From the NCBI GenBank assembly GCA_902526565.1, contig CABZLP010000001.1:64361-128360 (forward strand): 64,000 nucleotides of DNA, written 5' to 3'. Source of the stretch: an uncultured Pelagibacteraceae bacterium. GTDB taxonomy: Bacteria > Pseudomonadota > Alphaproteobacteria > Pelagibacterales > AG-422-B15. The translations under genes and the position numbers were made by a program. This document shows positions 41,199 to 62,890 of this stretch, piece after piece. Positions within the stretch are counted from its first letter, which is position 1, and each line of letters starts with the position of its first letter. A model generated the notes under the pieces. The model worked only from the letters and a program-made list of their open reading frames with translations. It did not search any database and was not told the DNA's origin.

Positions 41199-41200
41199 GA

Positions 41201-41983: not shown

Positions 41984-43149
41984 TTTTCCTTAACAAATAT
42001 ATTTCTTAAAAAACCAATTATGCCATTTTCACTAAAAATTGTGATTATTACAAATCCAAACCCTAACAACACTGTCCACCAATTCACCCATTCTATAGTA
42101 AATATGCCCAAAGGAATATCGGGTGCCTGTCCACCAGTAAACCATGACGAAAATAATGAAACAAAAGCGGCACCAATGATTGCTCCATACAATTTTCCTC
42201 TTCCTCCAATAGCAACCCATACAGCGAGATAGATCGATGCAATAGGCGCAAGCTCTGCAGGATTAATTATACCTGCTTGAGGGTAATAAAGAGCGCCAGC
42301 AATACTTGAGATTATTGCTGTTAACACAAATATAAATAATTTATATATTTCGACATTATACCCTAAGAACCTTACTCGTGTTTCGTTATCTCTTATTGAT
42401 GTAATAATTAATCCAAACTTGCTTTTCATAAGTGAATGAAAAAGTAAAAAAATAGATATTAGAAAAATACAACTTGCCCAAAAAAACCCTATGGATATGA
42501 CCTCTTGTCCTAAATACTCAATGCCAGGAATATTCTGCAAACCTGAGAGGCCATTATTACCCCTTAGACCACTGTCATTTTGAAATAAATATAATGACAG
42601 AGCTAAAGTTAATGCTTGAGTTAAAATTGAGAGATAAACTCCAGTTACTCTCGACCTGAATGCAAGCCACCCAAATATAAATGCAAGAATACCAGGTACT
42701 GCAATAACCAAAATCAATTGTAAACCAAGACTATCTGCAAACATCCATATGGATGGTATTTCATAGCCACCGACAACTCCAAAAATCTGGTTTCCAATGG
42801 CATTTGATAATTCAGTTTCGGTTAATGGAAGCAACTCATTAGTGGCAGCCTCCTGAACAATAATGGCTGTTCGCTCATACATTAGCCACATTCCAATCAT
42901 GTAACCACCAAGTCCAAAAAAGGCGAAATGCCCTAGAGACAGAATTCCGCAATAACCCCATACCACATCCATTGCCAGAGCAATTATGCATAGACAAACA
43001 GTTTTGCCTAAAGTTTTGACAAAACTAGTAGATATTAATCCGTTTCCGTAAGGTTCACTAAAAAAAGTTATAAACAGAGAAAATATAATAACAACTATTG
43101 TAAAAATTAATGTGTGTCGAGCTAGTAAATCATTTATTGAATTAGTCAT
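41980..43149 (-). CDS. urtC: Urea ABC transporter permease
   Basis: 389 aa, an HAAT-family (LivM-like) polytopic permease. Confidence 0.85.
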   Translation of the reverse strand: MTNSINDLLARHTLIFTIVVIIFSLFITFFSEPYGNGLISTSFVKTLGKTVCLCIIALAMDVVWGYCGILSLGHFAFFGLGGYMIGMWLMYERTAIIVQEAATNELLPLTETELSNAIGNQIFGVVGGYEIPSIWMFADSLGLQLILVIAVPGILAFIFGWLAFRSRVTGVYLSILTQALTLALSLYLFQNDSGLRGNNGLSGLQNIPGIEYLGQEVISIGFFWASCIFLISIFLLFHSLMKSKFGLIITSIRDNETRVRFLGYNVEIYKLFIFVLTAIISSIAGALYYPQAGIINPAELAPIASIYLAVWVAIGGRGKLYGAIIGAAFVSLFSSWFTGGQAPDIPLGIFTIEWVNWWTVLLGFGFVIITIFSENGIIGFLRNIFVKEK

Positions 43150-45154
43150 CAGCTGCTCTCCCTTTAAGGGCTACTATCCCTTTTGGTCTAAATTGTATAA
43201 ATAAAATAATAAAGATGATCATATAAGTTTGCGCTGCGAGAGTATTAGATGGATTGAACCATTCTATAAATTTTTGAAGGAACCCGATTAGTGAGGCTCC
43301 CGCTAATGTGCCCCATATGTTGCCCACTCCTCCAACAACCACTGTCATAAAGCTCTGAACTATATATTCAGACCCAAGCTCAGATGTAACCTTAGAAAAA
43401 AGTCCAATAGCAATTCCTGCGATTCCTGCAATTCCTGAACCAAAGCCAAAAGTTAACATATTTATTCTTTCAGGATTAATTCCCATGTTGGAGGCCATTA
43501 CTGGATTTTGGGTCACTGCACGAGTCTCCAATCCAAGTCTGGTACGATTCATTACAAAGAGCAACAAACCCAGAAATATTAGACTCAAAATAAATATGGC
43601 AATTCTTATATAACTGATCGATAGATCGTCGCTCAGACTGAGCGATCCATCAAGCCACGATGGAGATGTAAGTGGTCTTGCTTGTGTTCCGAAAATATTC
43701 TTTGCAATTTGTTGTAATGCAATACTGATCCCGAAAGTGGCCAGTAATGTATCAAGTGGTTTACGATACAAATGACGTATAACGAGTCTTTCCATGATCA
43801 CTCCAGCTATAAATGTAATTATAAATGCAAGGGGAAGTGCAACTAAAAGTGATAGTGTATGGTTACTTATAAATTGTTGAACAACATACCCCGTGTAGGC
43901 ACCCATCATGATAAATTCACCATGAGCCATATTAATTACTCTCATTACACCAAAAGTAATCGCTAAACCAATTGCTCCAAGAAAATAGATTGATGCAAGA
44001 CTTAAACCATCAATAAGTAGATCAATATATTTATAGATCTGAACTCTAAAATTTATACTAGCTAGAGTATTTAGTGCGGCATTTGTTACTTCAGAAGAAG
44101 TTTCATTGTAAATCGAATAAAATATAAATTTGTTTACTTCTTCATTAATTTTATTTTCAGAAATAAAAGGAGGTGCTAAATTATTTTCAACTAATTTATT
44201 ATAGGCAGCAATGCGAGATTGTTCATTGTCTAGTGAACTAATAGAATATCCTCCAATAGTATCTCCGCTAATATTTTGTTCTAATATTTTCTTTAATTCT
44301 TCTTGGGTAATCCTTTTTTTATAAACTAGATTATCTGCATATAATTTGTCATATGCATCATTAATTGATATCTCAACATCTTCATTAAAAAAATTAGTTG
44401 TGCCCGATGTTCCATTACTATTTTTGATTGTAAAACCAGGCACAATTACCCTAGCAATATTTTTATTATTAGGAAGAGAGATGCCGACTTTCACTTCTGA
44501 AGAATTGAGGAGTTGATTTAGAGAAGCCCTTATTTCGATCGCGGTATCGCCTTTAAAAGACTCGATTATTTCTAATTTTTTATTATTCGAGTCGGAGTAC
44601 TTAACAATTGCAAATTTTAGCAATCGATCAATAGCATTTTTTAGTTCTGCATCTGACTCATTTATGTAAGCATCTTGTAACACTTCCAAATGTTCAGGCC
44701 GGATATTTCTTTTTAAACTTTCTATGCTTTTTTGTCGTACATTAATATCTGAATTAGATATTTGGTATTTTACTAAAATAGAGTCTATTTTTGCTCTTAC
44801 TCCACTATTGGGTTTAATCTTTTTGATTTCTTTTTTGCTGTAATTGCCGATCCTAGTAAGACCATCTATTTCTAAGGCGTCAAGTGACTCTTCATTTTCA
44901 TTAACTATAACTACTTGTTTCGTATCTTTTATATAGTAAAGACTCTTCGATTTCCATAGTTCTAAAAATCTTGAAACAATTTCATCATCAAAACTTTGTA
45001 TGTCTCTTAGTATAGAATCAACAGTTTTTGCTGAACTCTTAATTATATTTTCTGAATTTTCTATTAAGAATATATTAAATTCATCATGGTGAGCAATTGC
45101 TGGTAGATTTATAAAAAAAGCATACAGAAAAATTATATAAAATTTAATTTTCAT
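43142..45154 (-). CDS. urtB: Urea ABC transporter permease with a ~370-aa N-terminal extracytoplasmic extension
   Basis: The C-terminal ~300 aa is a LivH-like permease (MRVINMAHGEF). The N-terminus has a signal peptide followed by a long non-membrane domain. Confidence 0.8.
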   Translation of the reverse strand: MKIKFYIIFLYAFFINLPAIAHHDEFNIFLIENSENIIKSSAKTVDSILRDIQSFDDEIVSRFLELWKSKSLYYIKDTKQVVIVNENEESLDALEIDGLTRIGNYSKKEIKKIKPNSGVRAKIDSILVKYQISNSDINVRQKSIESLKRNIRPEHLEVLQDAYINESDAELKNAIDRLLKFAIVKYSDSNNKKLEIIESFKGDTAIEIRASLNQLLNSSEVKVGISLPNNKNIARVIVPGFTIKNSNGTSGTTNFFNEDVEISINDAYDKLYADNLVYKKRITQEELKKILEQNISGDTIGGYSISSLDNEQSRIAAYNKLVENNLAPPFISENKINEEVNKFIFYSIYNETSSEVTNAALNTLASINFRVQIYKYIDLLIDGLSLASIYFLGAIGLAITFGVMRVINMAHGEFIMMGAYTGYVVQQFISNHTLSLLVALPLAFIITFIAGVIMERLVIRHLYRKPLDTLLATFGISIALQQIAKNIFGTQARPLTSPSWLDGSLSLSDDLSISYIRIAIFILSLIFLGLLLFVMNRTRLGLETRAVTQNPVMASNMGINPERINMLTFGFGSGIAGIAGIAIGLFSKVTSELGSEYIVQSFMTVVVGGVGNIWGTLAGASLIGFLQKFIEWFNPSNTLAAQTYMIIFIILFIQFRPKGIVALKGRAADD

Positions 45155-45161
45155 AATTTAA

Positions 45162-45200
45162 AAACGCCATAAAGAATATTAACTATTCTTTACAGCGTTT
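45162..45200 (-). terminator. Intercistronic stem-loop / partial terminator between urtA and urtB
   Basis: Stem arms AAACGC-CA-TAAAGAATA and TATTCTTTA-CA-GCGTTT around the loop TTAAC: 15 paired bases with a 2x2 internal mismatch. On the transcribed strand it is followed by UUUUU. Confidence 0.5.
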
Positions 45201-45214
45201 TATTTAGGTTAAAA

Positions 45215-46495
45215 TTAGTAGTTAGACTTTAACTGAACACAGCTGCTGGTCGAAGTATTATACATCCCACAACCTAAGCTTTGCCAATCTGATGTTAAAA
45301 CAGCTGACTCTGCTAAGTGATCTGTCCACGCATCTCCTGGAACCTCGGTCGTTTGGCTAATTATATCAAACTGACCATCCTCAAGGATCTCACCTATTAA
45401 AACAGGTTTAGAGAGATGATGATTTGGGAGCATTTCAGCAGTTCCACCCGTGAGATTTGGAACTGTAATTCCATACATAGCTTCTCTAACTGCATCTACA
45501 TCAGTAGTTCCAGCTTTTTCCACTGCTTTTACATACATGTTAAATCCAATCACGTGCGCTTCCATCGGGTCATTAGTAACTCTTTCTGGTCCCATAGTGC
45601 TTTTCCAGTTTTTGATAAATGCTGTATTTAAATCGGATTCAGCTGATTGAAAATAATTCCACGCAGCTAGGTGGCCAACCAAATTTGTTGTATCAAGTCC
45701 GGATAATTCCTCTTCACCAACTGAGAAAGCGACAACTGGTATGTCTTCAGCGTTCACGCCTGCAGCTGCAAGTTCTTTATAAAATCCAATGTTTGCATCA
45801 CCGTTAATAGTTGAAATAACACCTACCTTCTTTCCATCAGCCCCAAGTGCTACAACATCAGCAACAATTTTCGACCAATCCGAGTGACCAAAAGGTGTGT
45901 AATTTACAAAAATATCAGACTCAGGAATTCCTTTATCAATTAAATATTGATTTAGAATTTTGTTTGTTGTTCTAGGATAAACATAGTCAGTTCCAAGTAA
46001 TGCGAACTTTTCAATGCCTAGTTCTTCTAGATAGTAATCAGTAGCTGGTATAGCTTGTTGGTTTGGAGCGGCTCCGGTATAAAATACATTTTTTGAGCTT
46101 TCTTCACCCTCATATTGAACTGGATAAAAAAGTAATCCGTTAAGTTCTTCAATAACGGGTAATACAGACTTTCTAGACACAGAAGTCCAGCAGCCAAACA
46201 TTACATCAACATCATTGACAGTTATTAATTCTCGAGCTTTTTCGGCAAAAAGTGGCCAATCTGAAGCAGGATCAACAACTACTGCTTCCAGTTTTTTTCC
46301 GAGAATACCGCCCTTTTCATTTTGTTCATCGATCAACATTAACATTGTATCTTTTAACGTTGTCTCTGAGATTGCCATCGTACCCGACAGCGAGTGTAAT
46401 ATGCCAACTTTGATAGTATCTGCATACGCAGTGATACTAAAAAAGAAAAATGACATAACAACTATAATTTTCTTAATCATTATTCGTCCTTTCAT
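45215..46495 (-). CDS. urtA: Urea ABC transporter substrate-binding protein
   Basis: Has a signal peptide followed by IKVGILHSLSGTMAISETTLKD...VDPASDWPLFAEKAREL, which is very characteristic of UrtA. Confidence 0.88.
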   Translation of the reverse strand: MKGRIMIKKIIVVMSFFFFSITAYADTIKVGILHSLSGTMAISETTLKDTMLMLIDEQNEKGGILGKKLEAVVVDPASDWPLFAEKARELITVNDVDVMFGCWTSVSRKSVLPVIEELNGLLFYPVQYEGEESSKNVFYTGAAPNQQAIPATDYYLEELGIEKFALLGTDYVYPRTTNKILNQYLIDKGIPESDIFVNYTPFGHSDWSKIVADVVALGADGKKVGVISTINGDANIGFYKELAAAGVNAEDIPVVAFSVGEEELSGLDTTNLVGHLAAWNYFQSAESDLNTAFIKNWKSTMGPERVTNDPMEAHVIGFNMYVKAVEKAGTTDVDAVREAMYGITVPNLTGGTAEMLPNHHLSKPVLIGEILEDGQFDIISQTTEVPGDAWTDHLAESAVLTSDWQSLGCGMYNTSTSSCVQLKSNY

Positions 46496-46681
46496 TTTTT
46501 TAACTGCTACATAATTTCTTAAAAAAATTAGTGATACGAATCTTTACACTTGCCAATATGACATCTCGAAAAAAAAAATTTAAACATAATTTTTATATTA
46601 CTAATTAGTATCTATAATTTTAGTGATAAAAATAAATGACAATTATTTGTCAACTTGAAATTAAAACACTATGATAATTTC

Positions 46682-47479
46682 ATGAAAGTAAATCTTCAAA
46701 AATCTTTAGGCACAATTGATGTAGAGTTTATAAATAATGATGTTGAAAAATTATATCAGCAAGGATGCCTTAAAGCTTTACTACCTCAATCCTACTCTAG
46801 TTTGTCTCAACTAGTTTTAGTTAATACATCTGGAGGCGTAACGAGTGGTGATAAGTTTAATACCAAAATAGACATACACAATACACATATGCTTTCTACA
46901 AGTCAGGCTGCTGAGAAGGTATATAGTGGATATGGAGACGCGGCTGAACTTAAATATACAATTAACATTGATAATAGTACTCTTTTTTGGATACCAAATG
47001 AAACAATCCTCTTTGATAACTGCAACCTAAGGCGTCAAATTGATATAAATCTTTTAAATGATTCAAATTTATTTTTTTGTGAAACAGTTGTTTATGGAAG
47101 ATCAGCAATGAATGAAACGATTGAAAAAGGTTACTACGCTGATCGATGGAAAATATTCAATGATAATAAAATTGCTCACCTTGAAATCAATGGCTTTGAA
47201 GATAATATAAAAAGAATGCGGGAAAATAAATTTATGCTTAATGATAATATTGCTGTTAATACAATAATAATACTCGGTTCAGAGATGAATAAATTTTATG
47301 CTGTATTAAAGGAAAATATACATGATGAAAAAAGTGTAACTACTGGTATTTCAGAGTGGGCTGGTAAGATAGTAATAAGGAGTATTTCGTCTAATAACTA
47401 TTATTTAAAAAAATTTATAAAAAATATCGTGTCAATCATGATGAATGATAAAATTCCTTACATATGGGGTGCTGCGTGA
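46682..47479 (+). CDS. ureD: Urease accessory protein UreD
   Basis: It is the first gene of the ure cluster and has the [10 protein letters not shown] motif. The track start at 46655 is TTG, so in-frame ATG 46682 is preferred. Confidence 0.8.
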
Positions 47480-47778
47480 AGCTTTCCCCAAGAGAGATTG
47501 ATAAAATGATGGTCAGCATGGCTGCAATAGTCGCTCGAAAGAGGTTAGACCGTGGTGTTAAATTAAATTATCCTGAAGCCGTATCAATTATTTCAGATTA
47601 TGTTGTTGAAGGTGCAAGGGACGGGAAATCTGTAGCTGAACTAATGGAAAGTGCAGCACATGTATTAAAAAAAGATGATTGTATGGACGGAGTTGCTGAA
47701 ATGATTGCCGAAGTGCAGACAGAAGCAACTTTTCCGGATGGAACAAAGTTAGTCACGGTACATAAACCCATAAGGTAA
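47476..47778 (+). CDS. ureA: Urease gamma subunit
   Basis: A GTG start at 47476 gives (M)[11 protein letters not shown], matching the canonical 100-aa UreA N-terminus. The GTGA overlaps the ureD stop. Confidence 0.9.
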
Positions 47779-47785
47779 GAATGAT

Positions 47786-48094
47786 ATGATTCCTGGAGAA
47801 TTAATTACAAGTAACAGTGATATAATTTTAAATAAAGATTTAGTGAGTTTGACAATGAAAGTCTCCAATACTGGTGATCGGCCTATTCAAGTCGGTAGCC
47901 ACTATCACTTTGGCGAAGCAAATGAAAGTCTTGAATTCGATAGAAAGAAAGCCTTAGGCATGAGACTAAACATTTCATCTGGAACCGCGGTAAGGTTTGA
48001 ACCAGGGCAAACAAGAGATGTTGAACTTATTGAAATACAGGGGCAAAAAAAGTTATTTGGATTTAATAAAAAAGTCATGGGAAAAATAAAATGA
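47786..48094 (+). CDS. ureB: Urease beta subunit
   Basis: Starts MIPGE, with [15 protein letters not shown]. Confidence 0.93.
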
Positions 48095-49797
48095 AAAAAA
48101 TTCCAAGACGGTCTTATGCAGCTATGTATGGCCCTACAACAGGGGATAAAGTAAGGTTAGCTGATACTGAACTTTTCATAGAGGTTGAAAAAGACCTTAC
48201 AGTCTACGGTGAAGAAGTCAAGTTTGGTGGCGGCAAAGTTATTCGTGATGGCATGGGACAGTCTCAGGTTTCAAGAAGCGATGGAGCTGTAGACACAGTT
48301 ATTACAAATGCTCTAATACTAGATGTAACAGGGATATTTAAAGCAGATATTGGACTAAAGAACGGAAATATTGATCATATTGGAAAAGCTGGTAACCCTG
48401 ATACACAACCCGGTGTGGATATTATAATTGGTCCAGGTACTGAAGTTATTGCAGGTGAAGGTAAAATTGTAACGGCGGGCGGCTTTGACAGTCATATACA
48501 TTTCATATGTCCTCAGCAAATTGATGACGCCTTACATTCTGGCATTACTACGATGCTGGGTGGAGGTACCGGACCAGCACATGGAACATTAGCAACTACT
48601 TGCACGCCGGGGCCATGGCATATCGGCAGGATGCTTCAATCATCAGATGCTTTCTCGATGAATTTAGCTTATGCAGGCAAAGGAAATTCTTCGATGCCTT
48701 CGGGTTTAGAGGAACAAGTTCTTGGTGGAGCAGCTGCTCTCAAACTTCATGAGGACTGGGGCTCTACTCCTGGTGCAATTGATAATTGTTTAAGTGTTGC
48801 TGATAAATTCGACGTTCAGGTCATGATACATACTGATACGCTCAACGAAAGTGGCTTTGTAGAAAATACAATTAATGCAATTAATAAAAGAACCATTCAT
48901 ACATTTCATACTGAAGGTGCAGGCGGTGGACACGCCCCTGATATAATAAAAATTTGTGGTGAACCCTATGTTTTGCCATCTTCAACTAATCCAACACGAC
49001 CATTTACTGTTAACACTGTTGAAGAGCATTTAGATATGCTAATGGTTTGCCATCACCTTGATAAATCAATACCTGAAGATGTAGCATTTGCCGAAAGTAG
49101 AATACGCAGAGAAACGATGGCTGCTGAAGATATATTGCACGATATGGGTGCTTTCTCAATCATCGCATCTGACAGTCAAGCTATGGGACGCGTTGGTGAG
49201 GTTATTATTAGAACATGGCAAACAGCTCATAAAATGAAAGTGCAAAGAGGAAGACTATCTGAAGAGCAAGGCGATAATGATAATTTAAGAGTCAAACGAT
49301 ACCTTGCAAAATATACAATAAATCCATCAATTGCTCATGGAATTTCTTCCTATGTTGGCAGTCTCGAAAAAAATAAAAGAGCTGATATCGTTATCTGGGA
49401 CCCAGCTTTCTTTGGCGTTAAACCTGAGATTGTAATAATGGGTGGAAGTATTGCCTGCGCTCAAATGGGCGATCCAAACGCATCGATTCCAACTCCCCAA
49501 CCTGTATATACCCGCCCAATGTTTGGAAGTTATGGAGGATCGCTTGAAAACTCATCGGTAACTTTTGTCAGCAAGAGTTCTCTGGAGGCAGGCAGCCTTA
49601 ATCATCTCAATATACAAAAAACTATGCTACCAGTAAGCAATACAAGGTCAATTTCAAAAAAAGATATGGTTTTAAATGATATTTGTCCAACTATAGATGT
49701 AAATCCTGAAACATATGAGGTTAGAGCAAATGGAGAAATTATAACATGTGAACCAGCGGAAGAACTGCCAATGGCACAAAGATATTTTATGTACTGA
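48091..49797 (+). CDS. ureC: Urease alpha subunit
   Basis: 568 aa with [26 protein letters not shown] and MVCHHL motifs. Confidence 0.97.
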
Positions 49798-49799
49798 TT

Positions 49800-50243
49800 A
49801 TGGAAATTTGTAATTCAATATTAAGTAACTGTAATTCCTCAAAAGAGTTTGATACAATTTCGCTATCTTATGAGGAGAGATTCATGCGACGCAAAAAATT
49901 AGTTTCTGACAAAGGTCATGAATTTCTTGTTGATCTTGAAGAGATGAAATCAGTCACGAGTAATCAAGCGTTCAAACTTGAGAGTGGAAAATTAATTAAT
50001 ATAAAATCAAAAAAAGAAAATTTAATTGAGATCAAGTCAGAAGATTTAAATAAATTAATATGGCATATTGGGAATAGACATATCCCCTGTCAGATTGAAG
50101 CTACGAGAATTCTAATACAAAGTGACCATATAATTGAGGATATGGTGAGAAGACTTGGGGGGCAGACAAAATCTGTGATTGAACAATTTAATCCTGAAGG
50201 TGGGGCTTACGGTATGGGAAGAACGCATGGTCACAAGCATTAA
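49800..50243 (+). CDS. ureE: Urease accessory protein UreE
   Basis: Supported by its position in the cluster, the GNRH motif (HIGNRHIP) and a His-containing tail THGHKH. Confidence 0.8.
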   Translation: MEICNSILSNCNSSKEFDTISLSYEERFMRRKKLVSDKGHEFLVDLEEMKSVTSNQAFKLESGKLINIKSKKENLIEIKSEDLNKLIWHIGNRHIPCQIEATRILIQSDHIIEDMVRRLGGQTKSVIEQFNPEGGAYGMGRTHGHKH

Positions 50244-50886
50244 AAGTAAAGACTTTTTAGATTTAAAATCTCATCAAATTTTACATCTTTGGTTTTCGTC
50301 TTCATTTCCTATTGGTTCATACGCATATTCGCATGGTCTCGAGGCTATAATTGATGACAAGCTTATCAAAAATAAAAATGACGTATTGGCATTTATTAAA
50401 AGTATTCTCTTTGAGGGAACATGCAGAAATGAGTATATCTTTATCAAGGCTACCTATGATGGAATTAATGTAAATGATTTAGTGCTTGCAAGTTGCTCAT
50501 CCAAGGAACGTCAGCTTGAAACACTCAAAATGGGTGATGCCTTCAGAAAAATTATGTCTGAGAGTTGGGACTATACAATAGATAATGAAACCACTTTTCC
50601 AGTTTGTATTGCTCAAGCAGGAATTAAATTTCATATTGCCTTTGATGATTTGGTTGATTTTTATATTCAATCATTCATATCAAATTTAATTAATATATGC
50701 GTTAAACATATACCTTTAGGTCAAAAAGATGGTCAAGATTGTATGGTGTCATTTCTTGGAATGATGAAAAGATTTTATAATACTATGAAAGACTATAGCT
50801 TAGACGATTTACGCAATTCAATGTTTTGTGCGGATATTTACAGTATGAAACACGAAAATCTTACATCCAGAATTTATGTCACATGA
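50227..50886 (+). CDS. ureF: Urease accessory protein UreF
   Basis: Has the motif [16 protein letters not shown] 50227 is preferred over the track start at 50179. Confidence 0.8.
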
Positions 50887-51503
50887 ATAATTTTCGAGGT
50901 CCATTAAAAATTGGTATCGGCGGCCCTGTAGGTGCGGGTAAAACAAGTCTTACTGAGGCTTTGTGCAAAAATTTATCTAAAAATATTTCAATGGCAGTTA
51001 TATCGAATGATATTTACACAATTGAAGATGCCGAGTATTTAATGAGAGCTCAAGTTTTACCAATTGAGAGAATTAAAGGCGTCGAAACAGGTGGATGCCC
51101 TCATACCGCAATTCGAGAAGATGCTTCGATTAACCTCTTGGCTGTAGAAGAAATGAAACAAAAATTTCCTGATTTACAGTTGCTATTGATTGAGTCAGGT
51201 GGAGATAATTTGGCTGCAACGTTTAGTCCGGAGTTGGTAGATTTATCAATCTATGTGATTGATGTTGGAATGGGAGGTGATATTCCTCGTAAAGGTGGAC
51301 CAGCAATAAAAAAATCTGATTTACTAATCATCAATAAAACCGATTTAGCAAATTATGTAAATGTTGATTTAGATCAAATGAAATTAGATGTTGAAACTGC
51401 CCGATCAGGCATGCCTTATATTTTTGGTGAAATGAAGAATAATAAGGGAATAGAAAATATTGCTGAATTTCTCAAAACTGAGGGCGGTCTTGAAATAAAC
51501 TAA
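50883..51503 (+). CDS. ureG: Urease accessory GTPase UreG
   Basis: ATG 50883 overlaps the ureF stop (ATGA) and gives [21 protein letters not shown], followed by ETGGCPH and ESGGDNL. Confidence 0.93.
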
Positions 51504-53605
51504 AACCCACTTTCCTGAATGAGTATTGAGGTAGTTGCATTAAATATATTTTGAAAAATATTATAATTTTCAGAATCTATTTTTACAGATCCGGCAGTCT
51601 GCCATTGGAAATCTTTCGGATTCTCTGAAGAAGAAAAATTTAATTGATAAAGAGCATTTTCTGGTCTCTGAACCTGTTTCTTTCCAAGTATCTCTCTTGA
51701 TGCAATTGTGCCTCCATAAGTTGAGGTCAAAGCCAAATACGGCAACTCTTCGGTTGAAGTTTCATTTGATGATACTAATTCGACTTTGACTTTCGCAAAT
51801 TCATTATTTTTTGCATGAAAGTAACCGCTTGAAACTTTTTTTATTTTATTAAGATCCGTCTCACTAACAAAAGCTATCACTTGCACTTCTTCTGACTGAA
51901 CAATTGAAAATAGCTTATCTTTTTTATTTACCCATTGATTAGCGTTTAGACTTTTCAAATCTTTTATTATACCATCAGATGGCGCATAAATTGATAATGC
52001 TTTATTCTCTTCTTTCAATGAATTCAAAATTTCAATCTCCTTTTGTAACTCATTCTCAAGTATTAATAGATTGCTAAGATCAAGCTTTGATCCCACTCTA
52101 CGATCAAGTTTTTGCTGTATCATTTTCACACGGTCAATTGCTTTTTCGACTTTATTAGAAATCAATGGGTTCGCCATAATAACTAGCAAATCACCTTCAG
52201 CTACGTATTGATCATGCGAAATAAAAACCTTTCTAATCCTTGAATCTTCAGAGGCAAAAATATCAAGAACAACACCTTCTTCAATAACTGCTGGCAAACT
52301 AAGGGATGTACGCCATGGAACAAGCATAGCAAACATAAACACTGCAAATAAGATGATTGACCTCATAGAAGATCTATTGAATTTCATAGATTTTCTAAGC
52401 TTCCACCATTCAATGACTTCTCTGGCAATCGGCAATAAAATGAACCATAGAATTTCTACTATAAATAAAATAATTCCTAATATTTTAAATGTTAAATAAT
52501 AAACCAATAACGCAATACCAATAAAAATGAAGAAACGATAAATCCACGTAGCCCATGCGTAAATTATGAAAGTCCACCTTCTGTTAGCAATCAACTGTTC
52601 AGGTGGTTGAAATTTAAAACCAAAAAGCCACTCTCTTATCTGCCATCGACCTAAAGCAAATGAACGTGGTTGCAAATTTTCAGCTTTAAGGAAGTCAGAT
52701 AGCACATAATAGCCATCAAACCTCATGAAAGGACTTATGTTTATCAATAAAGATGAAATCCAGCTTGATGTAGCAATGAAAAAAGCTGCACTTTTCATTA
52801 TGCCTTCAGGAAATACAGCCCATGCAAATGTAGCAATCAAGGCTAGGTGTAGTTCAGTTAACATACCTGCAAAATTTATTAGTAAACGTTTTCTGTGGTC
52901 AGTGAGTTTCCAGGCATCGGAGGTATCTGTATATAAAAACGGAAAGAAAACCAACATAGCTAAGCCAATTGATGAAACTTTACACTTATAATATGTAGCT
53001 ACGTATGCATGACCCAACTCATGTAAAGCTTTTACAAAAACAATTGTAATTCCAAATAAGATCAAACCATTAATGTTGTAGAAATATGAAAAGGTTGAAA
53101 GAAATTTTTCATAATTAGTTATTGTCAAAAATATTCCGATTAAACCTAACCCATAAATAATACGTCTGACTGATAATGAGCTTAAAAACAAGGCAATGGG
53201 TAAACTTCTTTGAAGCCAAGTAACAGGTCTTACTAACGGTATTTTGAAAAATAGATAATTGTGAATAAGTTTAAGCAGCCAATGTTTATTGGTTTTATTT
53301 TTTTGAACTACTAAAGATTTAACTTCTTCACTTGTCTTTTTGATAGTTAAATTGTTTTGATCAAGAAAGTTTATGAACTCACTTATTTCTTCTTTAGTTA
53401 CTAATAATTTCGTTTCATTAATTTTTTTTATGAAATCTTCTAATTGAGATCCACTTGACCAATTATTTAAGAGATCAAAAGCATTTTTGTTTATCGAAAA
53501 ATATTTATTTCTCAAAGAGTCATATAGAAGCCATGATGAAGAGCCGTCCTCTTTTCGGGGGCCTTCGCTCAATTTTAAATCTTGTCTAAGATATGGGACA
53601 ATCAT
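51500..53605 (-). CDS. Fusion protein: PqqD/RRE-like N-domain, site-2-protease (M50)-like polytopic membrane domain and HlyD-type membrane-fusion domain
   Basis: HELGH lies at aa 195-199 (nt 53009-53023) and [10 protein letters not shown] at aa 289-298 (nt 52712-52741), matching the S2P motifs HExxH and NxxPxxxxDG. The C-terminal ~260 aa has lipoyl-like halves flanking a coiled coil ([12 protein letters not shown] ... [12 protein letters not shown]). Confidence 0.7.
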
Positions 53606-54949
53606 TTAAAATCCTAAAAACTGTCTCGTGAGATTTATAGGAACACGAAATATGTAATAAAAAATACTGGTCTTTGCGCCATAAATCTTAGCGGTACCGC
53701 GTAAACCTATCCTTGGAACCTCACCTTGACTGTCATGATAATTAGCAATGATCTTATAAGCTAAAATATTCTCAGATGTAAGTGCGGGTTTATATGAAGT
53801 ACGCAATACCTTACCGTCTAAAGAATTGAGAGGGTCACTATCTAAAAAAACTTTTACTCTGGCTTCTTTCTTAATCAAAAGAGAGTCTTTAGTAGGCAGG
53901 AAGATTTGAAATTCAATTTGTTCAGGATCAGCTATGGTTAATATTTTTTCTCCAATGTTAACTGGCTTCCCTTGCCAATCAGTAAAGTCTTCAACGACAG
54001 CTATACCTTCTCTGTCTGCAAAGATGATTGAGTATTTCAATTGTTCTTCTGCATATTCTGCTTCTTTTTTTCTCAAACCTACTTCTGTTGATAGTTCAAC
54101 TAAACGAGCTTTGTCATCTGAATTTGTAAATGATGACTGCTTGATGCGTAAAAGCTCTGCTTCTGCTACTTCAAGCTCTTGAAGCGCAATTTCATACTGG
54201 TTTTTAAAATTTAAATCATCCAATCTGACAAGTTCTGTCCCTGTCTTTACGTTTTCATTAGTCTTAATTAAAACTTCTTTTACCACGCCATTTACTGGTG
54301 AAGTCACAATGGTTGGATCTTTCGCAACTACTTCAACGGGCGCTAAAGCTGTCATACTAATTGGAAAAAACATTACTGCCGTTACAGAGGCAATCACTGC
54401 CCATTTAATCCATCCAGTAAACAAACGGTTGATATTTGAAATAATTATATTTTTTGACCTGAACGAGTTCAGTGCATGACTAAAGGTTTCTGAAATATGA
54501 AGTAAAAGATCTTTTTCAGAGTTGCTGATAACTTCTGATCTAACCATGACTAGATACCCAACATTTTTTTCAATCCACGAACGAAGAGGAACGAATATTA
54601 AATGTTTAGGAAAATTATCAGGAGTAATAAGATTTAACTCTTTTATAGAAGTATCGTTGAGATTAAATTCCGAAATATCATCAAAGCTGATCAGATCTTT
54701 TTTATTTATTAATGTTTCAACAAAAGTAACAGTTGGAGCTGTTCTATCGATAATTGATAGGTCAGAAATAGTATGTACTTTTAATCGATTTATACTTGAT
54801 CTATTGAGAAGAAATAAAAAATTATAATCAACTATGCTTCGCAATTCATTAGCGCAAATGAAAGCAAGCTCAGTTTCAGTTTCTGCATTACGAAACTTTT
54901 TCTCAAGCGTTATCAGTCGCGCAATTTTTATAGAGGAATTATCATTCAA
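53606..54949 (-). CDS. HlyD-family membrane-fusion protein with a ~170-aa cytoplasmic N-terminal domain (GAF-like?)
   Basis: Has a single TM segment (WIKWAVIASVTAVMFFPISM), then VTSPVNGVVKEVLIKTNENVKTGTELVRLDD, a coiled coil, and IFADREGIAVV...GEKILTIADP. The TTG start overlaps the upstream stop (TTGA), and its own stop abuts the next ATG. Confidence 0.7.
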   Translation of the reverse strand: MNDNSSIKIARLITLEKKFRNAETETELAFICANELRSIVDYNFLFLLNRSSINRLKVHTISDLSIIDRTAPTVTFVETLINKKDLISFDDISEFNLNDTSIKELNLITPDNFPKHLIFVPLRSWIEKNVGYLVMVRSEVISNSEKDLLLHISETFSHALNSFRSKNIIISNINRLFTGWIKWAVIASVTAVMFFPISMTALAPVEVVAKDPTIVTSPVNGVVKEVLIKTNENVKTGTELVRLDDLNFKNQYEIALQELEVAEAELLRIKQSSFTNSDDKARLVELSTEVGLRKKEAEYAEEQLKYSIIFADREGIAVVEDFTDWQGKPVNIGEKILTIADPEQIEFQIFLPTKDSLLIKKEARVKVFLDSDPLNSLDGKVLRTSYKPALTSENILAYKIIANYHDSQGEVPRIGLRGTAKIYGAKTSIFYYIFRVPINLTRQFLGF

Positions 54950-55665
54950 AATGTTGCCGTCCCACTCATTCCAGGAAGTAATGTTTCATAATTTTCATCA
55001 AATTTTGCAGTAGCGTCAATAGTTTGACTTACTGGATCAATATTCGCCCCCAAGGTATTCACTGTAGCACTATATATTGAACCATTTTCATCAATAACAA
55101 TACTTAATGGGTGGCCCTCAGACAACCATGCCAACCATTTACTTGAAATCATAAGTTTTGCTTCCAATATTCCAGAGCCAATGATTTGAATCATCGGTTG
55201 CTGCCTTTCAATGCTTTCATATTCATTCACAAATACTTTGGACATTGTTCCATCATAGGGAGCACGAATAATGCAACGATCTGTATTAAGCTGAGCAATT
55301 TTCAACTCTGACTTAGCCCTATCTACTGCAATTTGTGACAATTGAACTTCATACTCTCCAATGGATCTCATCGTTGCAAGTTCTTGATTGCTCTTCAAGG
55401 TTACGATGGCACTTTCTAACTCCGCTTGTACTACATCTTTTTGGGCTTCAAAAAAAGAACAATCCAACTTAATTAATATATCTGATTTTTTAAAATTAGC
55501 ACCTTCTGCAAATGGAATAGATTCAACTTTTGAGGCAAGTTCGCTTGATATTGTTGCCTCTTCAGTTGCCGTTACCAAAACACGAGTTGAATATTCTTCA
55601 GCTAGTAAATTAAATGGAAAAAGTACGCTGCAAGCAATAACTGCAAATGTTACAATATTATTCAT
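54946..55665 (-). CDS. Small periplasmic membrane-fusion (biotinyl-lipoyl/HlyD-like) protein with a signal peptide
   Basis: 239 aa with an N-terminal signal or anchor, then ISSELASKVESIPFAEGANFKKSDILIKLD, a short coiled coil, and IIRAPYDGTMSKVFV. Confidence 0.65.
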   Translation of the reverse strand: MNNIVTFAVIACSVLFPFNLLAEEYSTRVLVTATEEATISSELASKVESIPFAEGANFKKSDILIKLDCSFFEAQKDVVQAELESAIVTLKSNQELATMRSIGEYEVQLSQIAVDRAKSELKIAQLNTDRCIIRAPYDGTMSKVFVNEYESIERQQPMIQIIGSGILEAKLMISSKWLAWLSEGHPLSIVIDENGSIYSATVNTLGANIDPVSQTIDATAKFDENYETLLPGMSGTATF

Positions 55666-55675
55666 ATGGTTTTTA

Positions 55676-58600
55676 TTAGCTTACTAGAGATATAATCTTT
55701 TCACCATAGCTATCCGCTCTTTTGGCATGTAGCTTTAATTGCTCATCAAGTGGAATAAAAGAAATTTCGTCATCTAATGCCGAATTTTCATCATCTGTCT
55801 CAGCACCTGTTATTTCGTTAAGATCAATTTCAACTTCAATAATTCTTTCTTTTCCGTCTTCGTCTTCAGCAATAATCTTTAGTTCAAGTACTTGAAGACT
55901 ATCTGTTAAGAATGAGGGAGCTGCTGACCCTGTTCGACCTTTAGATGGGTCAGCTGCTATTTTTCCTGTTTGAGGATCAATAGAAATCCAATCTGGAAGT
56001 TCACCGCCACCTTTTAGCTCAGCTTTATACATTTTTACATTCGATTGATTGTTATCAATTACATCTAATGTGTATTGGCCTGCATCCATTTGAAGATTGC
56101 TTAACTTCATTGTACCTTCAAAATCTGTTTGAGAATTCAAGTTATTATTTATTGTTTGATTAGATGAATTGTTGTTCTCTCTGATCAAGTTTACGTTTGC
56201 GTCATTATCAACAACGATATTAGTTTGGCCAACAGTACCGCGAGTGAAGTCTTTATCATTCTTGATTTTAGCTTTGTCTAAAATAATGTTTATATCACGA
56301 GTATTTCCATCTTTATCTAATGCAACAAGTTGAACTTCTACCTGATCAATTCCATCTGGCATTTCTGCAGTTGTCTCACCTGTTTCAGGATTAACTTTAA
56401 TCCATTCAGGCAATGATTTTCCATCGGATAATTGTCCTGAATATAATTCAACATTCTTTTGGTTATCGTCGTTTAATTTAACGCCTACAGCTAAATCAGT
56501 GTTATCATCACCCGATACCTCGCTCGCAACTGCATCCATCAATCTCAAGCCACCATTAAACTTAAGTGGCTTAGATAGGGATGCGGTATCTGCAATTGAA
56601 ATAGTATCAAGAGTAAAGCCATCATCATCGATAATATTTACTTCATTAATATATTCCTGCATTTTTCCTGGCTTTACTTTAATTGGTTTAGTTGGCTCAA
56701 GAGTACCTTGTGGTTCTGGTTCATTAGGTTCTGGTGGGAGCGTGATAACATTTGGAATTACTTTAATGGTAAAGGTATGATCTGTATAAAGTCCTGCGCC
56801 GTCAATAGCTCTTATTGTGATTGTATAAATACCCGGTGTATCAATACTTCCATTGAGTTTTTTATCTTTTAGTTGGAGACCATCAGGTAAACTTGTTTCA
56901 GCATCAGTTTCAGGGTCAATAATTTTGTATTCAGCAATATCATAAATACCACTATCTGGATCGTCAAAAATCTGTCTATGCCTCAGGAATATTTTTTGAC
57001 CAGTAACATATGTTGGAAGATTTACGGGAGCTACTACCTCAGGTGGATCATTGATGCCAGTCACAGTGATGGCTATCTGAGCTTCTACAGGCGTTTCTCC
57101 ATCTGTTGCGGTATATGTGAAGTACTCCGTCTTAGTTTCACCAGGGTTTAGAGATTTTGCATTATTAGCCTTGTATTCATAGCTGCCATCGGAATTTATA
57201 GTTAAGTCACCATACGTTCCTGTTAGGGGTGATCCAATTGTCCCAGGTGTCCCCGTTCCAGCTTCTTCTCCTGTTCGTATTGTATTTACAGTTAAACTGT
57301 CACCATCAGGGTCTGTATCATTCTTCAATACTCCTTTTGAAGCATCTTTTACTCCTGTCGCACCTGCATCGATTTCTATAGTATCATCTTTTGGTACTGG
57401 CGGATCACTTTTACCAGTAACAGTTATCGCAATCACACCAATGTCTTCATTTGTTCCATCTGTTACAGTATAGTTGAAATATTCTATTTTGCTCTCGCCT
57501 CTTTTAAGCGCATCTGCTGCAGCCTGATCAGCAACATAACTATAGCTTCCATCAGCATTAAGAGTAAGAGTACCGTAAGTTCCTACAAGTCCTGAACCAA
57601 GTGTACCTGGGTCACCACCGCCTTCTGATTGCCCAAGTCTAATTCCAGAAATTGTTAATGACTCACCGTCTGCATCAGTATCGTCTGCGTTAAGTGCAAA
57701 TGTTGTATTAGCCGCTCTCGTAATTGTCTCACCTTTAGGAACAGTATCAGTATCGTCAACCGCTACAGGATCATTATCGTTTATTCCTGTTACTGTGAAT
57801 GTAAGATTTGCTGTTGACGTAGCCGTTCCATCACTCACCGTATACGTAAATGTATCTGCCCCAGTTTGACCTGTAACGAGTTGATCTGATTTTGTTTGAT
57901 CAGCAACATAAGTGTACGACCCATTCGCATTCACTGTCAGAGTTCCATACTCGCCTGTTAATGAAGCCCCTACTGTACCGGTCGCACCTGTGCCATCCTT
58001 TGATCCCGTTCTGATGCCAGTTATTGTAAAGTTTCCACTCGTATCATCCCCATCAACATCCGTATCGTCATGATCTAATTCTTGAGTGTCACTTACTGTT
58101 CGACTAATGGTTGCATCCTCATTAACACTATCTGTGTCATCAACGGCAACGATTGGGTCGTTTGCCCCATTTATGGTTACTGTAAGTGTTGCAGTGGATG
58201 AGTTTTTATCATCATCGTCCTTTACGGTGTATGTGAATATTTCAGAAACAGAGTCACCTGCATCTAAGGCTTCAGCTGCAGCTGTATTCGCTATGTATGT
58301 ATAACTTCCATCAGCTGCTACTGTTAATGTTCCGTAAGTACCTAAAACTCCAGCTCCTGCTACACCACTATTGCTTGTACCGTTTGACGAAACATTGGTA
58401 ACCGCAAGACTTTCCGTATCTCCACCAGTATCGTTTGTTAATACTCCACCTGCTGTATTAACTGTCAATGTCTGACTTTCAGTGGCAGTAGCTGTGTCTG
58501 CTGAACCGACAGGACCTACACCTGTTACAGTTATAACCAAATTTGCCGTATCGGTTGTTCCAGCGCCATCACTTACGGTATAAGTGAATGTATCGGTTGC

Positions 58601-61600
58601 AGTTGCACCATGAGCTAACCCGTCAGCACCACTGGTATTGGCAGTATATACATAGCTACCATCAGAAGCGAGCGTAAGGGTACCGTATGTTCCTGTTAAC
58701 TCTTGACCGACTGTCCCTCCATTGACTCCTGAAACAGTTAAACTTGAACTTGCATCAGCATCAGTATCATTAGATAAAACACCACTGCCAGCACTTATTG
58801 ATATTTGCGCATCCTCATTAACAGCGCCTGTATCATTTACTCCAACAGGGTCGTCATCAATACCTTTTACGGTGAAGGTTATAGTTGCTGTGTCTGTTCC
58901 AGTTCCATCAGTTACTGTGTATGTGAACGTATCTGTTGCAATATCTCCTGCATCAAGAGCATTAGCATTGTTAGCATTATAAACGAAGCTACCATTGCTT
59001 TGTATTGTTAATTGACCATACGTTCCAGAGACTGCATTTCCGAGAGTGCCTCCTGCTATCGCAGAAACTGTTAGAGGGTCATTATCTGGATCAGTATCAT
59101 TAAGGAGAACATCTCCTGAATGATCTCCACTTTCGTTATTATTATTACTATCTGTTCCTGTTACTGCAGATGTGCCGTCAGTAACTTGAAGCTGAGAGTC
59201 CTCAAGGATATATCCTGTGTCATTATTTCCTGTGGGAGGAACCACAGTAGTTCCAGTTACTGTTATTGCTAGTTGTCCTGTATCAGTATCACCAGCTTGA
59301 TCTGTTACAGTATATGTAAAGTAATCAACGACAGTTGCGTCATTAGCCAGACTAAGCGCATCAGGTCGATTGGCAGCGTAACTATACGATCCGTCTGCGT
59401 TGATCGTGACTGTTCCGTATGTTGTTGTAAATTCTTGGCCAAGAGTTTTTGTATCGCCACTACCTGTCTTTTGTCCAGTTCGTATCGCTGTAATAGTAAG
59501 ACTACCTGGAACATCATCAGCGTCTGCATCTGTATCGTCTTGATCAAGCTCTTGTGCATCGCTTGTACCTCTTGAGATTGATGCACCAGCATTTACCGCA
59601 TCAGTATCATTAACAGCAGTAATATCATCGTTAATTCCAGTCACCGTAATAGTTAATGTTGCAGTACTTGCATTTTTATCGGCATCATCTTTAAGAGTGT
59701 ATGTAAATACATCAGTAACTTGATCACCAGGATCAAGGGCATCAGCTGCTGATTGGTTGGCAACATATTCATAGCTACCATCAGCCGCCATGGTTAATTC
59801 ACCATAAGTTCCAGTAACAGCTTGTGCAGCATTACCACTATTCCCAGTAACGCCGTGAGTTATGCCAGTTATAGCTAAACTTTCAACATCGTAGCTTGCA
59901 TTGTCATCATCATTACTGATTACACCAGATGCTTCATTTACTGTTAAAGTAGCATCTTCATTGACTGAACCAGTATCAGCAACAGCTTGAGGGCCTACAC
60001 CTTTTACAGTGATGACTAAATCTGCTGTATCAGTTGTTCCAGCGCCATCACTTACGGTATAAGTGAATGTATCGGTTGCCGTAGCATCAGCAGCGAGACC
60101 ATCCTCACTTCTACCATTTGCAACATAAGTATAACTACCATCTGAACTCAAAGTCAGAACACCATAGGTTCCATTTACTTCTTGACCAACTGTGCCACCC
60201 GAAATTGAAGACACTGTGAGACTTGAACTAGCATCAGCATCAGTATCATTTGATAATACTCCACTTCCCGTGCTGACAGTAAGGGTTTTATCCTCGTTGA
60301 TTGCACCTGCATCATTATTGCCAACTGGATTATCATCGACTCCGTTAACAGTGATTGTTAGGGTTGCTGTGCTTGAATTTACATCATCATCATCTTTAAC
60401 TGTGTAAGTGAAGACATCAGTTTCAGAGTCACCGGCATCTAAGGCTTCAGCTGCAGCTGTGTTCGCCGTATAAGTATAAGTACCATCAGCTGCAACGGTC
60501 AGAGTACCATATGTACCTAAAACACCTTGAGTGGCGTTCCCACTATTCCCTGTAGAGTCTGAGGTAATATTTGTAACAGCTAAACTCTCACTATCATAAG
60601 CGGCATTATCATCATCATTTGCCAGAACACCAGTTGAAGAAGCATTATTGGCGTCTAGTGATGCATTTTCATTTACTGAAGCCGTATCGTTTACTCCTAA
60701 AGGTCCAACACCCGTAACTGTAATTGCAAGTTCAGCAGTATCTGTATCGTTTGGACTGCTTGTGTGATCTCTCACTGTATAGGTAAAGTAATCAATCGCA
60801 GATACGCCTGCCGCTAACGCGTCTGCCCCACTTCTGGTTGCAGCATAGCTATAGCTACCATCTGCAGCTACAGTTAATTCACCATAAGTACCATTTAGAG
60901 CCTGACCTATTGTGCCCGCTGTTGTTCCACTAGTTGCAGACTCTCTTCCTGTTCTGATTGCCGTGATTGTAAAACTGCCGGATACATCATCGTCATCAAC
61001 ATCTGTATCATCGTGATCTAACTCCTGAGAGTCTGAAGTACTTCTATTTATTGTTTTATCTTCAAATACGGAGTCGGTATCGTTTGCAGCGATAATAGGA
61101 TCGTTCACTCCTGTGATTGTTATTGTCAGCGTTGCGGTATCTGTAGCGGTTTGGTCAGTTACTGTGTATGTAAATGTATCTGTTACTGTATCACCAGGAT
61201 CTAGTTCGTCAGCTGCATCTTTATTTGCATTGTATGTATAGCTACCATCTGCACTCATAGTTAGCTGTCCATAGGTGCCATCTAGAGCGGATCCAAGAGA
61301 TCCACCGGATATTGCACTTACTTCAAGCGAATCTCCGTCAGCATCTGTATCGTTTGCTAAAACTCCGCTGCCAGCAGTTACTGAAACGCTAGCATCCTCA
61401 TTAACGGCTCCTGTGTCGTTGTTACCAACTGGAGCTTCGTTTGCAACTGGAGCCCTGGTAATGATACGAATAAAGTCACCTTTCTCACCATTTTTAGTTC
61501 CAATTCTGATAGTCTTGTTGCTATTTGAAATTTCAAACCAGTCTCCATTCCCCTCTTGACCAGGAGCATTGTCATTATTGTACTCTAAGTCCCTCTTACC

Positions 61601-62704: not shown

Positions 62705-62890
62705 TTATATATATAATTTTTCGCACTAGTATGATTATTGGCATTTAGCCTTTTCTTTATACATGACTAAAATTCTAAAGGTACTCTCATAAGCTAAAAT
62801 TACCCATTTTGGGCAAATTTTTTTTAGAGTTTTGAGCCATTTGTCTATATTCCCTTCTCATAACAACTAGTAAACAGATATCCTTAATTG

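Follow-up and report, generated by a model that had tools for sequence, protein, structure and literature searches.

Within a 64,000-nucleotide stretch of the genome of an uncultured Pelagibacteraceae bacterium (contig CABZLP010000001.1; the whole stretch is called the window, and positions are counted from its first letter), one ATG-started open reading frame (ORF) on the minus strand encodes a single polypeptide of 701 amino acids (aa) which unites a leader-binding-type domain, a site-2-type metalloprotease and a periplasmic adaptor of the MacA/EmrA type (51500-53605; stop codon 51500-51502). This RRE-M50(S2P)-MFP fusion combines a RiPP recognition element (RRE; RiPPs being peptides made by the ribosome and modified after translation), a site-2 protease (S2P) of the M50 family and a membrane-fusion protein (MFP), and its gene is linked to those of two further adaptors, a TolC-like protein and a giant repeat protein with an N-terminal LEPR-XLL motif. 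On balance, and with modest confidence, the fusion probably forms the inner-membrane core of an export apparatus which recognizes and cleaves the leader of such LEPR-XLL giants. The architecture itself is not rare, as it belongs to a very large family carried under generic database names, so that the fusion is no new sequence discovery. A published description of the fusion, of the module or of a function of LEPR-XLL and DUF4347 proteins was not found in the full-text literature, subscription-only papers lying outside the scope of that search. We class the module as an envelope-spanning system of the TolC/adaptor kind whose exporter would cleave the leader, the class being our assignment and the mechanism being inferred.

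Architecture and predicted topology of the fusion protein

The membrane part of the fusion (aa ~128-428; 52322-53224, minus) is a seven-helix domain with a site-2 protease core, as indicated by Foldseek, by the NCBIfam model NF041824, by the modelled helices and by the count of positive charges in the loops. Pfam assigns aa 186-341 to Peptidase_M50 (PF02163; 37.5 bits, gathering cut-off 27.2), and NF041824, the model of a daptide biosynthesis intramembrane metalloprotease, aligns with aa 23-388 over its positions 17-361 of 379 at E 2e-37, with a score of 129.2 bits that lies under the equivalog cut-off of 300. The zinc-binding/catalytic motif HELGH (aa 195-199 with H195, E196 and H199; 53009-53023, minus) is situated in the predicted transmembrane (TM) helix 178-205, and the second S2P motif, NxxPxxxxDG (aa 289-298 with N289, P292 and D297; 52712-52741, minus), at the cytoplasmic end of the predicted TM helix 269-289. 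A first-pass annotation of the sequence had claimed both motifs and their intramembrane placement; its coordinates were reproduced exactly for the one as for the other, and the placement agrees with the predicted helices. Across 66 aligned homologues with identities of 31-75%, the four residues singled out by that annotation (H195, E196, H199 and D297) are unvarying, as are N289 and P292; outside the protease, the same is true of E698 in the conserved C-terminal RESGF tail and of two N-terminal-domain residues, R7 and D29. PDZ and CBS domains were not found in the protein with Pfam.

The periplasmic adaptor (aa 432-701; 51503-52312, minus) consists of a lipoyl domain, an alpha-hairpin (480-535), a beta-barrel and a C-terminal helix ending RESGF, and was recognized by Foldseek, by profile search against PDB and by Pfam, where HlyD_3 (43.9 bits, cut-off 22.2, aa 539-614) and HlyD_D23 (34.2 bits, cut-off 30, aa 448-590) exceed their cut-offs; the Pfam E-values of the fusion protein span 2e-9 to 4.5e-11. 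The first adaptor strand begins at aa 432, which fits the extent assumed earlier (aa ~440-701, nt 51503-52288). Thus, both halves of the S2P and adaptor fusion proposed by the first-pass annotation stand, while it had overlooked a third part, namely a PqqD-like RRE fold at the N-terminus (aa 1-90; 53336-53605, minus) which is predicted to be cytoplasmic. This domain was assigned by Foldseek and by a weak NCBIfam match of PqqD_rel_WgkC to aa 23-86 (E 5.5e-4, 19.9 bits vs a cut-off of 110); Pfam PqqD gave no match at E<=0.01. Its modelled secondary structure comprises strands at 11-14, 25-29 and 34-38, followed by helices at 40-47, 55-64 and 71-83.

The full-length AlphaFold2 model, built with the homologue alignment, reached a pLDDT of 89.4 and a pTM of 0.75. 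A Foldseek search with it returned adaptors only (MacA 3fpp/5nik at E 4e-12, furthermore EmrA, MexA, AcrA and ZneB), the matches of MacA, EmrA and MexA falling on the C-terminal part at E 4e-12 to 1e-8, and for this reason the N-terminal 440 aa were modelled separately (pLDDT 90.1, pTM 0.84). The S2P-like core expected by the first-pass annotation appeared at the top of the matches to this second model: M. jannaschii S2P (MjS2P, 3b4r) was the best site-2 protease with a Foldseek probability of 1.00 and E 3.6e-3, and the SpoIVFB:pro-sigma-K complex (8vjl) matched with a probability of 0.99. Likewise, leader-binding proteins were retrieved with the aa 1-440 model, i.e., TbiB1 with its leader (5v1v/5v1u), the lasso peptide protein B1 (6jx3) and PqqD (5sxy), at probabilities of 0.96-1.00 and TM(target) values of 0.59-0.69, whereas the RRE of a sactipeptide synthase (5why) was a weaker match to the N-domain (0.57-0.66). 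Profile search of the fusion against PDB found MFPs at E 4.5e-14, and its S2P match was confined to the HExxH region (3b4r, E 5e-4, aa 190-220); a single-sequence PDB search gave nothing useful. Directly after the HExxH helix, the model of the fusion features a beta-hairpin (213-226), and S2Ps such as RseP and MjS2P carry a membrane-reentrant hairpin at the matching position.

Between the modelled helices, Lys and Arg residues are concentrated in the loops assigned to the inside (3, 6 and 3 residues vs 1, 0 and 0 outside), from which an N-in arrangement with seven spans and an outer C-terminus follows. The RRE and the active site are accordingly predicted to face the cytoplasm, which for the active site is also the orientation of known S2Ps, and the adaptor domain to lie in the periplasm, in line with the periplasmic position that the first-pass annotation had ascribed to the MFP part. 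Helix 411-428 runs continuously into the adaptor domain in the AlphaFold2 model.

The family to which the fusion belongs is both large and widespread. Searching 5.8 billion protein sequences yielded thousands of matches, the best 120 of which are all 700-702 aa long with 100% coverage and in many cases named 'site-2 protease family protein [Candidatus Pelagibacter sp.]'. At E<=1e-30, an exhaustive search of 50%-identity representatives matched 2,595 clusters; with few exceptions, the best 150 representatives have ~700 aa and align with the fusion from end to end. Database labels for the family are 'site-2 protease family protein' or 'HlyD family efflux transporter periplasmic adaptor subunit'. 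Among contigs of one genome per species, the gene occurs in SAR11 single-cell genomes and isolates, with 92-96% identity in single-cell genomes of Pelagibacteraceae; the window itself is SAR11 DNA, has a G+C content of ~33% and contains housekeeping genes elsewhere. Genes of 35-41% identity are present in Psychromonas, Colwellia, Marinomonas, Halopseudomonas, Azospirillum, Rhodospirillaceae, Parvibaculales and on a Desulfobacteraceae chromosome, and homologues are also borne by plasmids of Azospirillum, Cupriavidus, Burkholderia, E. coli and Citrobacter.

The conserved module and its presumed client

In the window, the fusion gene is the last of four tightly packed genes on the minus strand. 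The first encodes the giant repeat protein (2,342 aa; 55676-62704), followed after a 10-nt gap by a small secreted adaptor of 239 aa with an N-terminal signal-like hydrophobic segment (54946-55665; TIGR01730 RND_mfp, 105.9 bits, cut-off 94.9). A second adaptor of 447 aa (53606-54949; Pfam HlyD_3 and HlyD_D23) overlaps the latter by 4 nt and adjoins the fusion gene with a distance of 0 nt (53605/53606); it consists of a ~170-aa cytoplasmic N-domain, one TM segment and an MFP part. Divergent from the giant gene, a TolC-like outer-membrane factor (OMF) with a lipoprotein signal (LSAC) begins at 62891 on the plus strand and runs off the window end at 64000. It contains two OEP repeats (Pfam, 100.7 bits) and is 38% identical to the in-operon OMF of a gammaproteobacterial metagenome-assembled genome (MAG; locus L071). 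Together with the orthologues found inside the operon in other phyla, this gene supports the coupling to an outer-membrane channel that had been proposed for the fusion.

The linkage of these genes was followed in 79 loci which a search with the fusion had yielded. Wherever the sequence before the fusion gene was retrieved, its immediate upstream neighbour is the second adaptor, the small adaptor precedes the second one in most loci, and the giant repeat gene is found in many. TolC-like genes are part of the operon in two gammaproteobacterial MAGs (L063 and L071), on the Desulfobacteraceae chromosome (L074) and in Rhodospirillaceae (L075), and one lies beside the operon in Parvibaculales (L067). 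On plasmid p2 of Azospirillum brasilense, RefSeq annotates the succession DUF4347 protein, Ig-like protein, TolC family, RND adaptor, HlyD adaptor and again HlyD adaptor, the last being the fusion. The five-gene module, flanked by the insertion sequence IS1 and followed by IS1 and IS5 elements, resides on the E. coli IncHI1B plasmid NZ_CP060066.1 (L081/L082, 20836-38214). Gene order varies between lineages (in Nitrospira the cassette is located upstream of the giant gene, in SAR11 on its downstream side), and the linkage is kept. It holds in Alpha-, Beta-, Gamma- and Deltaproteobacteria, Campylobacterota, Nitrospirota and on E. coli plasmids.

A pump of the ABC, RND or MFS families adjoins the module neither in the window nor in any of the roughly 10 distant loci inspected. 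ORFs resembling ABC ATPases were picked up by a motif scan in 40 of the 167 retrieved loci, and these are mostly importer-type ORFs of 255-311 aa on the other strand and kilobases away. In no lineage examined is an ABC, RND or MFS pump consistently linked to the module.

The context points to a giant LEPR-XLL surface protein, and not to a small modified peptide, as the client. The window giant carries MSNKLIQALEPRLMLDGAAV at its N-terminus and continues with DUF4347 (aa 73-218; 62051-62488, minus) and twelve cadherin-like/VCBS repeats (Pfam Cadherin_4 x12 and Big_9; NCBIfam VCBS); Pfam and NCBIfam reported no RTX nonapeptide repeats in it. LEPRLMLDGA, situated at aa 9-18 (62651-62680, minus), is the candidate leader motif for recognition and cleavage. 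In the form ALEPRLMLDGA, it aligns with the LEPR-XLL members named by PGAP, and ALEPR[ILVM]M[LFY]DGA opens all 19 upstream giants whose N-terminus was captured; in total, every cassette-linked giant with a visible N-terminus has the motif. The giant of the E. coli plasmid carries FALESRQLFDGAA close to its start and that of Azospirillum MALEPRFMFDAAG. L9, E10, R12, D16 and A18 do not vary among seven sequences that represent five lineages (SAR11, Colwellia, Desulfobacteraceae, Azospirillum and the E. coli plasmid). The giant of the Desulfobacteraceae has the LEPR motif and lacks DUF4347.

A reverse search with the giant N-terminus (alignment of five sequences) recovered 80 loci, including Nitrospira, Campylobacterota, Magnetococcales, Betaproteobacteria and Pseudomonas; six of the 80 loci were checked by hand. 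The LEPR motif was accompanied by at least one cassette gene within 10 kb in 56 loci, while in 12 loci, most of them with short flanks, the motif was present and a cassette was not visible. DUF4347 without LEPR occurred in a further 12 loci lacking the cassette and in none possessing it. For this association, Fisher's test gave p = 2e-8 on the counts before the hand-check, a value which ignores phylogeny. The cassette-linked giants of several orders moreover share a motif at the other end, [FY]xPLxxQL...(~12 aa)...YGxxL, which is located ~10-35 aa from the C-terminus (window 55676-55800, minus; also L065, L066, L069, L072, L074, L026 and L037).

Several observations on relatives of these genes can be added. 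The 3,668-aa Ig-like giant of the E. coli plasmid, with ALESRQLFDGAA near its start, is followed by TolC, two adaptors and the fusion; the complete module is found on E. coli and Citrobacter plasmids, the one examined being IncHI1B. RSP, the Ig-like conjugation protein of IncHI plasmids, was considered as a relative and rejected, as its gene on plasmid R27 (L083, 11659-15957) lies among trh genes without an adjacent M50/adaptor cassette; RSP of R27 is reported to use a type IV system. In a Chlorobiaceae MAG (L156, 4269-8732, plus), a DUF4347 protein without LEPR is encoded near two ABC ORFs of 743 aa and without an M50 cassette, which suggests two alternative routes for DUF4347 proteins, a classical one by ABC and the LEPR/M50 one. 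In DUF4347, five diverse sequences have unvarying histidines (H122 and H126-G) as well as Y167-G168-C169. This His/Cys pattern is reminiscent of clan-CD cysteine peptidases (caspase/CHAT/CPD-like), and judged by these residues the domain could be self-processing; a PDB sequence search with DUF4347 gave nothing significant.

A distant subfamily of RRE-M50-MFP proteins with 22-25% identity is encoded on Rhodobacteraceae (L084, 11045-13003, plus) and Rhizobium (L085, 3711-5410, plus) plasmids. There, the fusion gene is directly followed by that of a 652-aa SecA paralogue (SecA_DEAD, PP_bind and P-loop), and protein translocation therefore appears to be the business of this architecture. In L084, an adaptor with a GAF domain and a repeat protein of >2,264 aa precede the fusion, and the Rhodobacteraceae plasmid cluster with the 22%-identical protein includes a 'LEPR-XLL domain-containing protein' according to PGAP. 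The GAF domain forms the N-domain of the second-adaptor counterpart; the N-domain of the 447-aa adaptor in the window has no Pfam match, GAF was not detected there, and BLASTP between the two proteins aligns the adaptor part only. Besides, the 447-aa adaptor (TRQFLGF) and the fusion (IQESGF) have in common an extreme C-terminal tail of the type R-[EQ]-x-x-G-hydrophobic, with the consensus IRESGF (window 53606-53630 and 51503-51520, minus), and similar tails of both proteins are kept across phyla.

The surroundings of the module in the window comprise a urea ABC-transporter gene set (40503-46495, minus) and the urease operon ureDABCEFG (46655-51503, plus). The latter adjoins the fusion gene in convergent orientation with overlapping stop codons of ureG and the fusion (51500-51503), and the urease genes are missing at this position in some related SAR11 loci. 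Rfam and tRNA scans were empty over 62000-64000, and a scan for promoters and terminators returned sites no more frequently than in shuffled sequences.

Proposed mechanism and competing explanations

In the mechanism proposed here, the RRE would bind the N-terminal LEPR leader of the giant in the cytoplasm, and the M50 site would cut off this leader in a manner comparable to SpoIVFB acting on pro-sigma-K or MpaP/EpeP acting on RiPP leaders. The three adaptors and a TolC-like trimer would form the conduit carrying the giant to the cell surface. Candidates for the passage across the inner membrane and for its power are an oligomer of the M50 domain, the housekeeping SecA or the proton-motive force. 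A more far-reaching version would regard the module as a distinct and self-sufficient class of Gram-negative secretion system, in which an oligomer of the S2P-like membrane domain replaces the ABC pump, recognizes the LEPR leader by way of the RRE, cleaves it and exports megadalton-scale adhesin-like proteins along the adaptor/TolC conduit; we consider this version possible and rather doubtful.

A number of points weigh against the export mechanism. The module of this subfamily encodes no energy source, and no precedent is known for an ATPase-free machine exporting a protein of 2,342 aa; an ABC exporter or SecA may therefore be needed as an unlinked partner; a SecA-type ATPase is not part of the SAR11-type module, unlike in the distant subfamily. 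The binding of LEPR by the RRE, the cleavage site and the proteolytic activity are all inferred, and the superposition of 3b4r on the aa 1-440 model is moderate (TM(target) 0.46). Concerning the client, the window giant scores 16.4 bits with the LEPR-XLL model (LEPR-8K, NF012209), just under the cut-off of 17, and the counts for the co-occurrence of LEPR and cassette are dominated by related SAR11 genomes. Finally, the shared C-terminal motif of the giants could, as in type I substrates, be the true secretion signal, in which case the N-terminus would serve some other purpose.

The last point leads to the main rival explanation, which assumes the same client and the same parts and differs in the direction of export and in the outcome of cleavage. 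According to it, the giant is exported C-terminus first by another route, for instance an unlinked type I ABC exporter, the RRE holds the LEPR segment in the adaptor/TolC conduit as an anchor, and cleavage by the M50 site releases the fibre. LapA, which is retained in LapE and freed by LapG, provides an analogue of this behaviour. The resemblance of the conserved C-terminal motif to type I substrates and the lack of an ATPase in the module would be accounted for, and the N-terminus would stay last in the cytoplasm, where the RRE and the active site are predicted. The cytoplasmic, sensory-type domain of the second adaptor (GAF in L084) could furthermore gate the release. On the other side, an ABC exporter is consistently linked in no lineage examined, and the IS-flanked module of the E. 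coli plasmid appears self-contained. Moreover, the type I HlyD model TIGR01843 lies far under its cut-off for all three adaptors (20-30 bits vs 208.65), and the RTX nonapeptide repeats are not reported in the giant. Retention followed by release is a serious explanation of clearly limited probability.

Much less probable is a RiPP-type system in which, as with YydH/EpeP or MpaP, the fusion would serve the maturation and export of a small peptide of ribosomal origin and the giant would be a mere neighbour. RRE domains are typical of RiPP pathways, and the RRE and M50 part shows homology to MpaP, the protease of the daptides (E 2e-37), although the score against the daptide model remains far under its cut-off. 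The spacing from the giant to the fusion gene is too tight for a precursor gene, and the inspected flanks of some 10 distant loci contained no genes of modifying enzymes (radical SAM, YcaO or lanthionine synthetase). The linkage to LEPR giants, which holds across phyla and gene orders, speaks against a chance neighbourhood as well.

Similarly improbable is the reading suggested by the databases, which name all three genes 'efflux transporter periplasmic adaptor subunit'. In that case, the three adaptors would be ordinary accessories of a pump for drugs or metals to which they are not linked, with the M50 part acting as a structural, non-catalytic membrane anchor. Six catalytic-motif residues that do not vary over 31-75% identity nevertheless argue that the active site is functional, efflux has no use for an RRE domain, and pumps are normally encoded beside their adaptors, which is not the case here.

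The intact active site would also suit a signalling protease which, like RseP, cleaves an anti-sigma factor or a similar regulator and for which the adaptor only provides localization, this being the canonical job of bacterial S2Ps. Yet sigma or anti-sigma genes are not linked in the window and the distant loci inspected, the fusion is devoid of PDZ and CBS domains, and it is co-inherited with TolC, two adaptors and the giant protein instead, which makes a signalling role slightly more improbable still. An assembly chimera or gene-calling artefact joining a protease gene to an adaptor gene is refuted, since the same full-length ORF of ~700 aa is found in hundreds of independent contigs and isolate genomes, including single-cell genomes, isolates (HIMB1493, Azospirillum, Marinomonas and Psychromonas), complete chromosomes and plasmids, since nearly all of the best 150 cluster representatives are full-length, and since helix 411-428 leads continuously into the adaptor.

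Significance and comparison with known systems

The leader-cleaving export proposed here would provide a function for the unstudied LEPR-XLL and DUF4347 giants and for thousands of genes labelled only 'HlyD family adaptor', and it bears on how the streamlined SAR11 cell places a protein of 2,300 aa on its surface. If it is true, RRE-guided leader recognition extends from small peptides to giant proteins; in the far-reaching version, this would be the first such case, and SAR11, the marine bacteria of highest abundance, would possess the distinct secretion class. The occurrence of the module in Nitrospira, in plant-associated Azospirillum and on IncHI1B plasmids of E. coli and Citrobacter makes genetic approaches feasible.

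The closest relative of the RRE and M50 part is MpaP of the daptide pathway, which has an RRE-like N-terminus and an M50 core with HExxH and is homologous over aa 23-388 of the fusion; tblastn with the fusion matched the mpaP genes of Streptomyces. MpaP differs from the fusion in lacking an adaptor domain and in originating from Gram-positive RiPP clusters with small precursors, and daptide genes were not found at the window locus. The first-pass annotation had named YydH as the only precedent for an M50 protease in peptide maturation, which does not hold, as MpaP shares the RRE and M50 part at E 2e-37 and TglG/TmoG and EpeP have been described as well (PMC10885120). For EpeP, a double role in the cleavage and the export of its peptide has been proposed (PMC10885120). 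EpeP/YydH and TglG/TmoG resemble the fusion as membrane M50 enzymes acting on ribosomal peptides; they lack, however, a fused adaptor and take small peptides as substrates, and their operon partners have no homologues in the module.

With SpoIVFB and M. jannaschii S2P, which are the best structural matches of its membrane part, the fusion shares the HExxH and NxxPxxxxDG motifs in membrane helices. In contrast to these proteases, it is devoid of a CBS domain and carries an RRE and an adaptor in addition; three extra helices follow the core, and similarity in sequence does not reach beyond the motif regions. Pro-sigma-K, otherwise a soluble protein, loses its N-terminal pro-sequence through SpoIVFB, and this is the reaction that the fusion would perform on the giant.

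The physical union of a leader peptidase with an exporter that spans the envelope is also known from CvaAB-TolC and PCAT systems, a likeness to be understood as analogy, not homology. Their leaders end with GG or GA and the LEPR motif with DGA. The peptidase of CvaAB/PCAT is a C39 cysteine protease on an ABC pump, whereas the module would use a zinc metalloprotease on an adaptor and has no ABC pump linked. As in the systems of LapA (LapBCE with LapG/LapD) and MpIBP, a giant surface protein with Ig/cadherin repeats, an adaptor and a TolC-like channel are encoded together, a protease acts, or in the module would act, on the N-terminus, and the substrate has a conserved C-terminal motif. The differences concern the ABC ATPase, which the module lacks, the three adaptor paralogues instead of one, and the M50 protease, which is fused to an adaptor in contrast to the periplasmic LapG.

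For tripartite systems, ABC, RND and MFS families are given as the inner-membrane transporters in the abstract of the 2021 Chem Rev review, and an M50-fused adaptor was not found in the part of its text that was searched. The adaptor of the fusion agrees with MacA, EmrA and HlyD in its lipoyl domain, hairpin and beta-barrel as well as in having an N-terminal membrane anchor before the periplasmic part. PET/AaeB represents a further type of inner-membrane engine in tripartite systems. In the fusion, the single anchor helix of MacA, EmrA and HlyD is replaced by a seven-helix protease together with a cytoplasmic RRE, and such an adaptor, joined to an intramembrane metalloprotease and a leader-binding domain and encoded together with TolC and two further adaptors and without a linked pump, stands outside the ABC/RND/MFS scheme.

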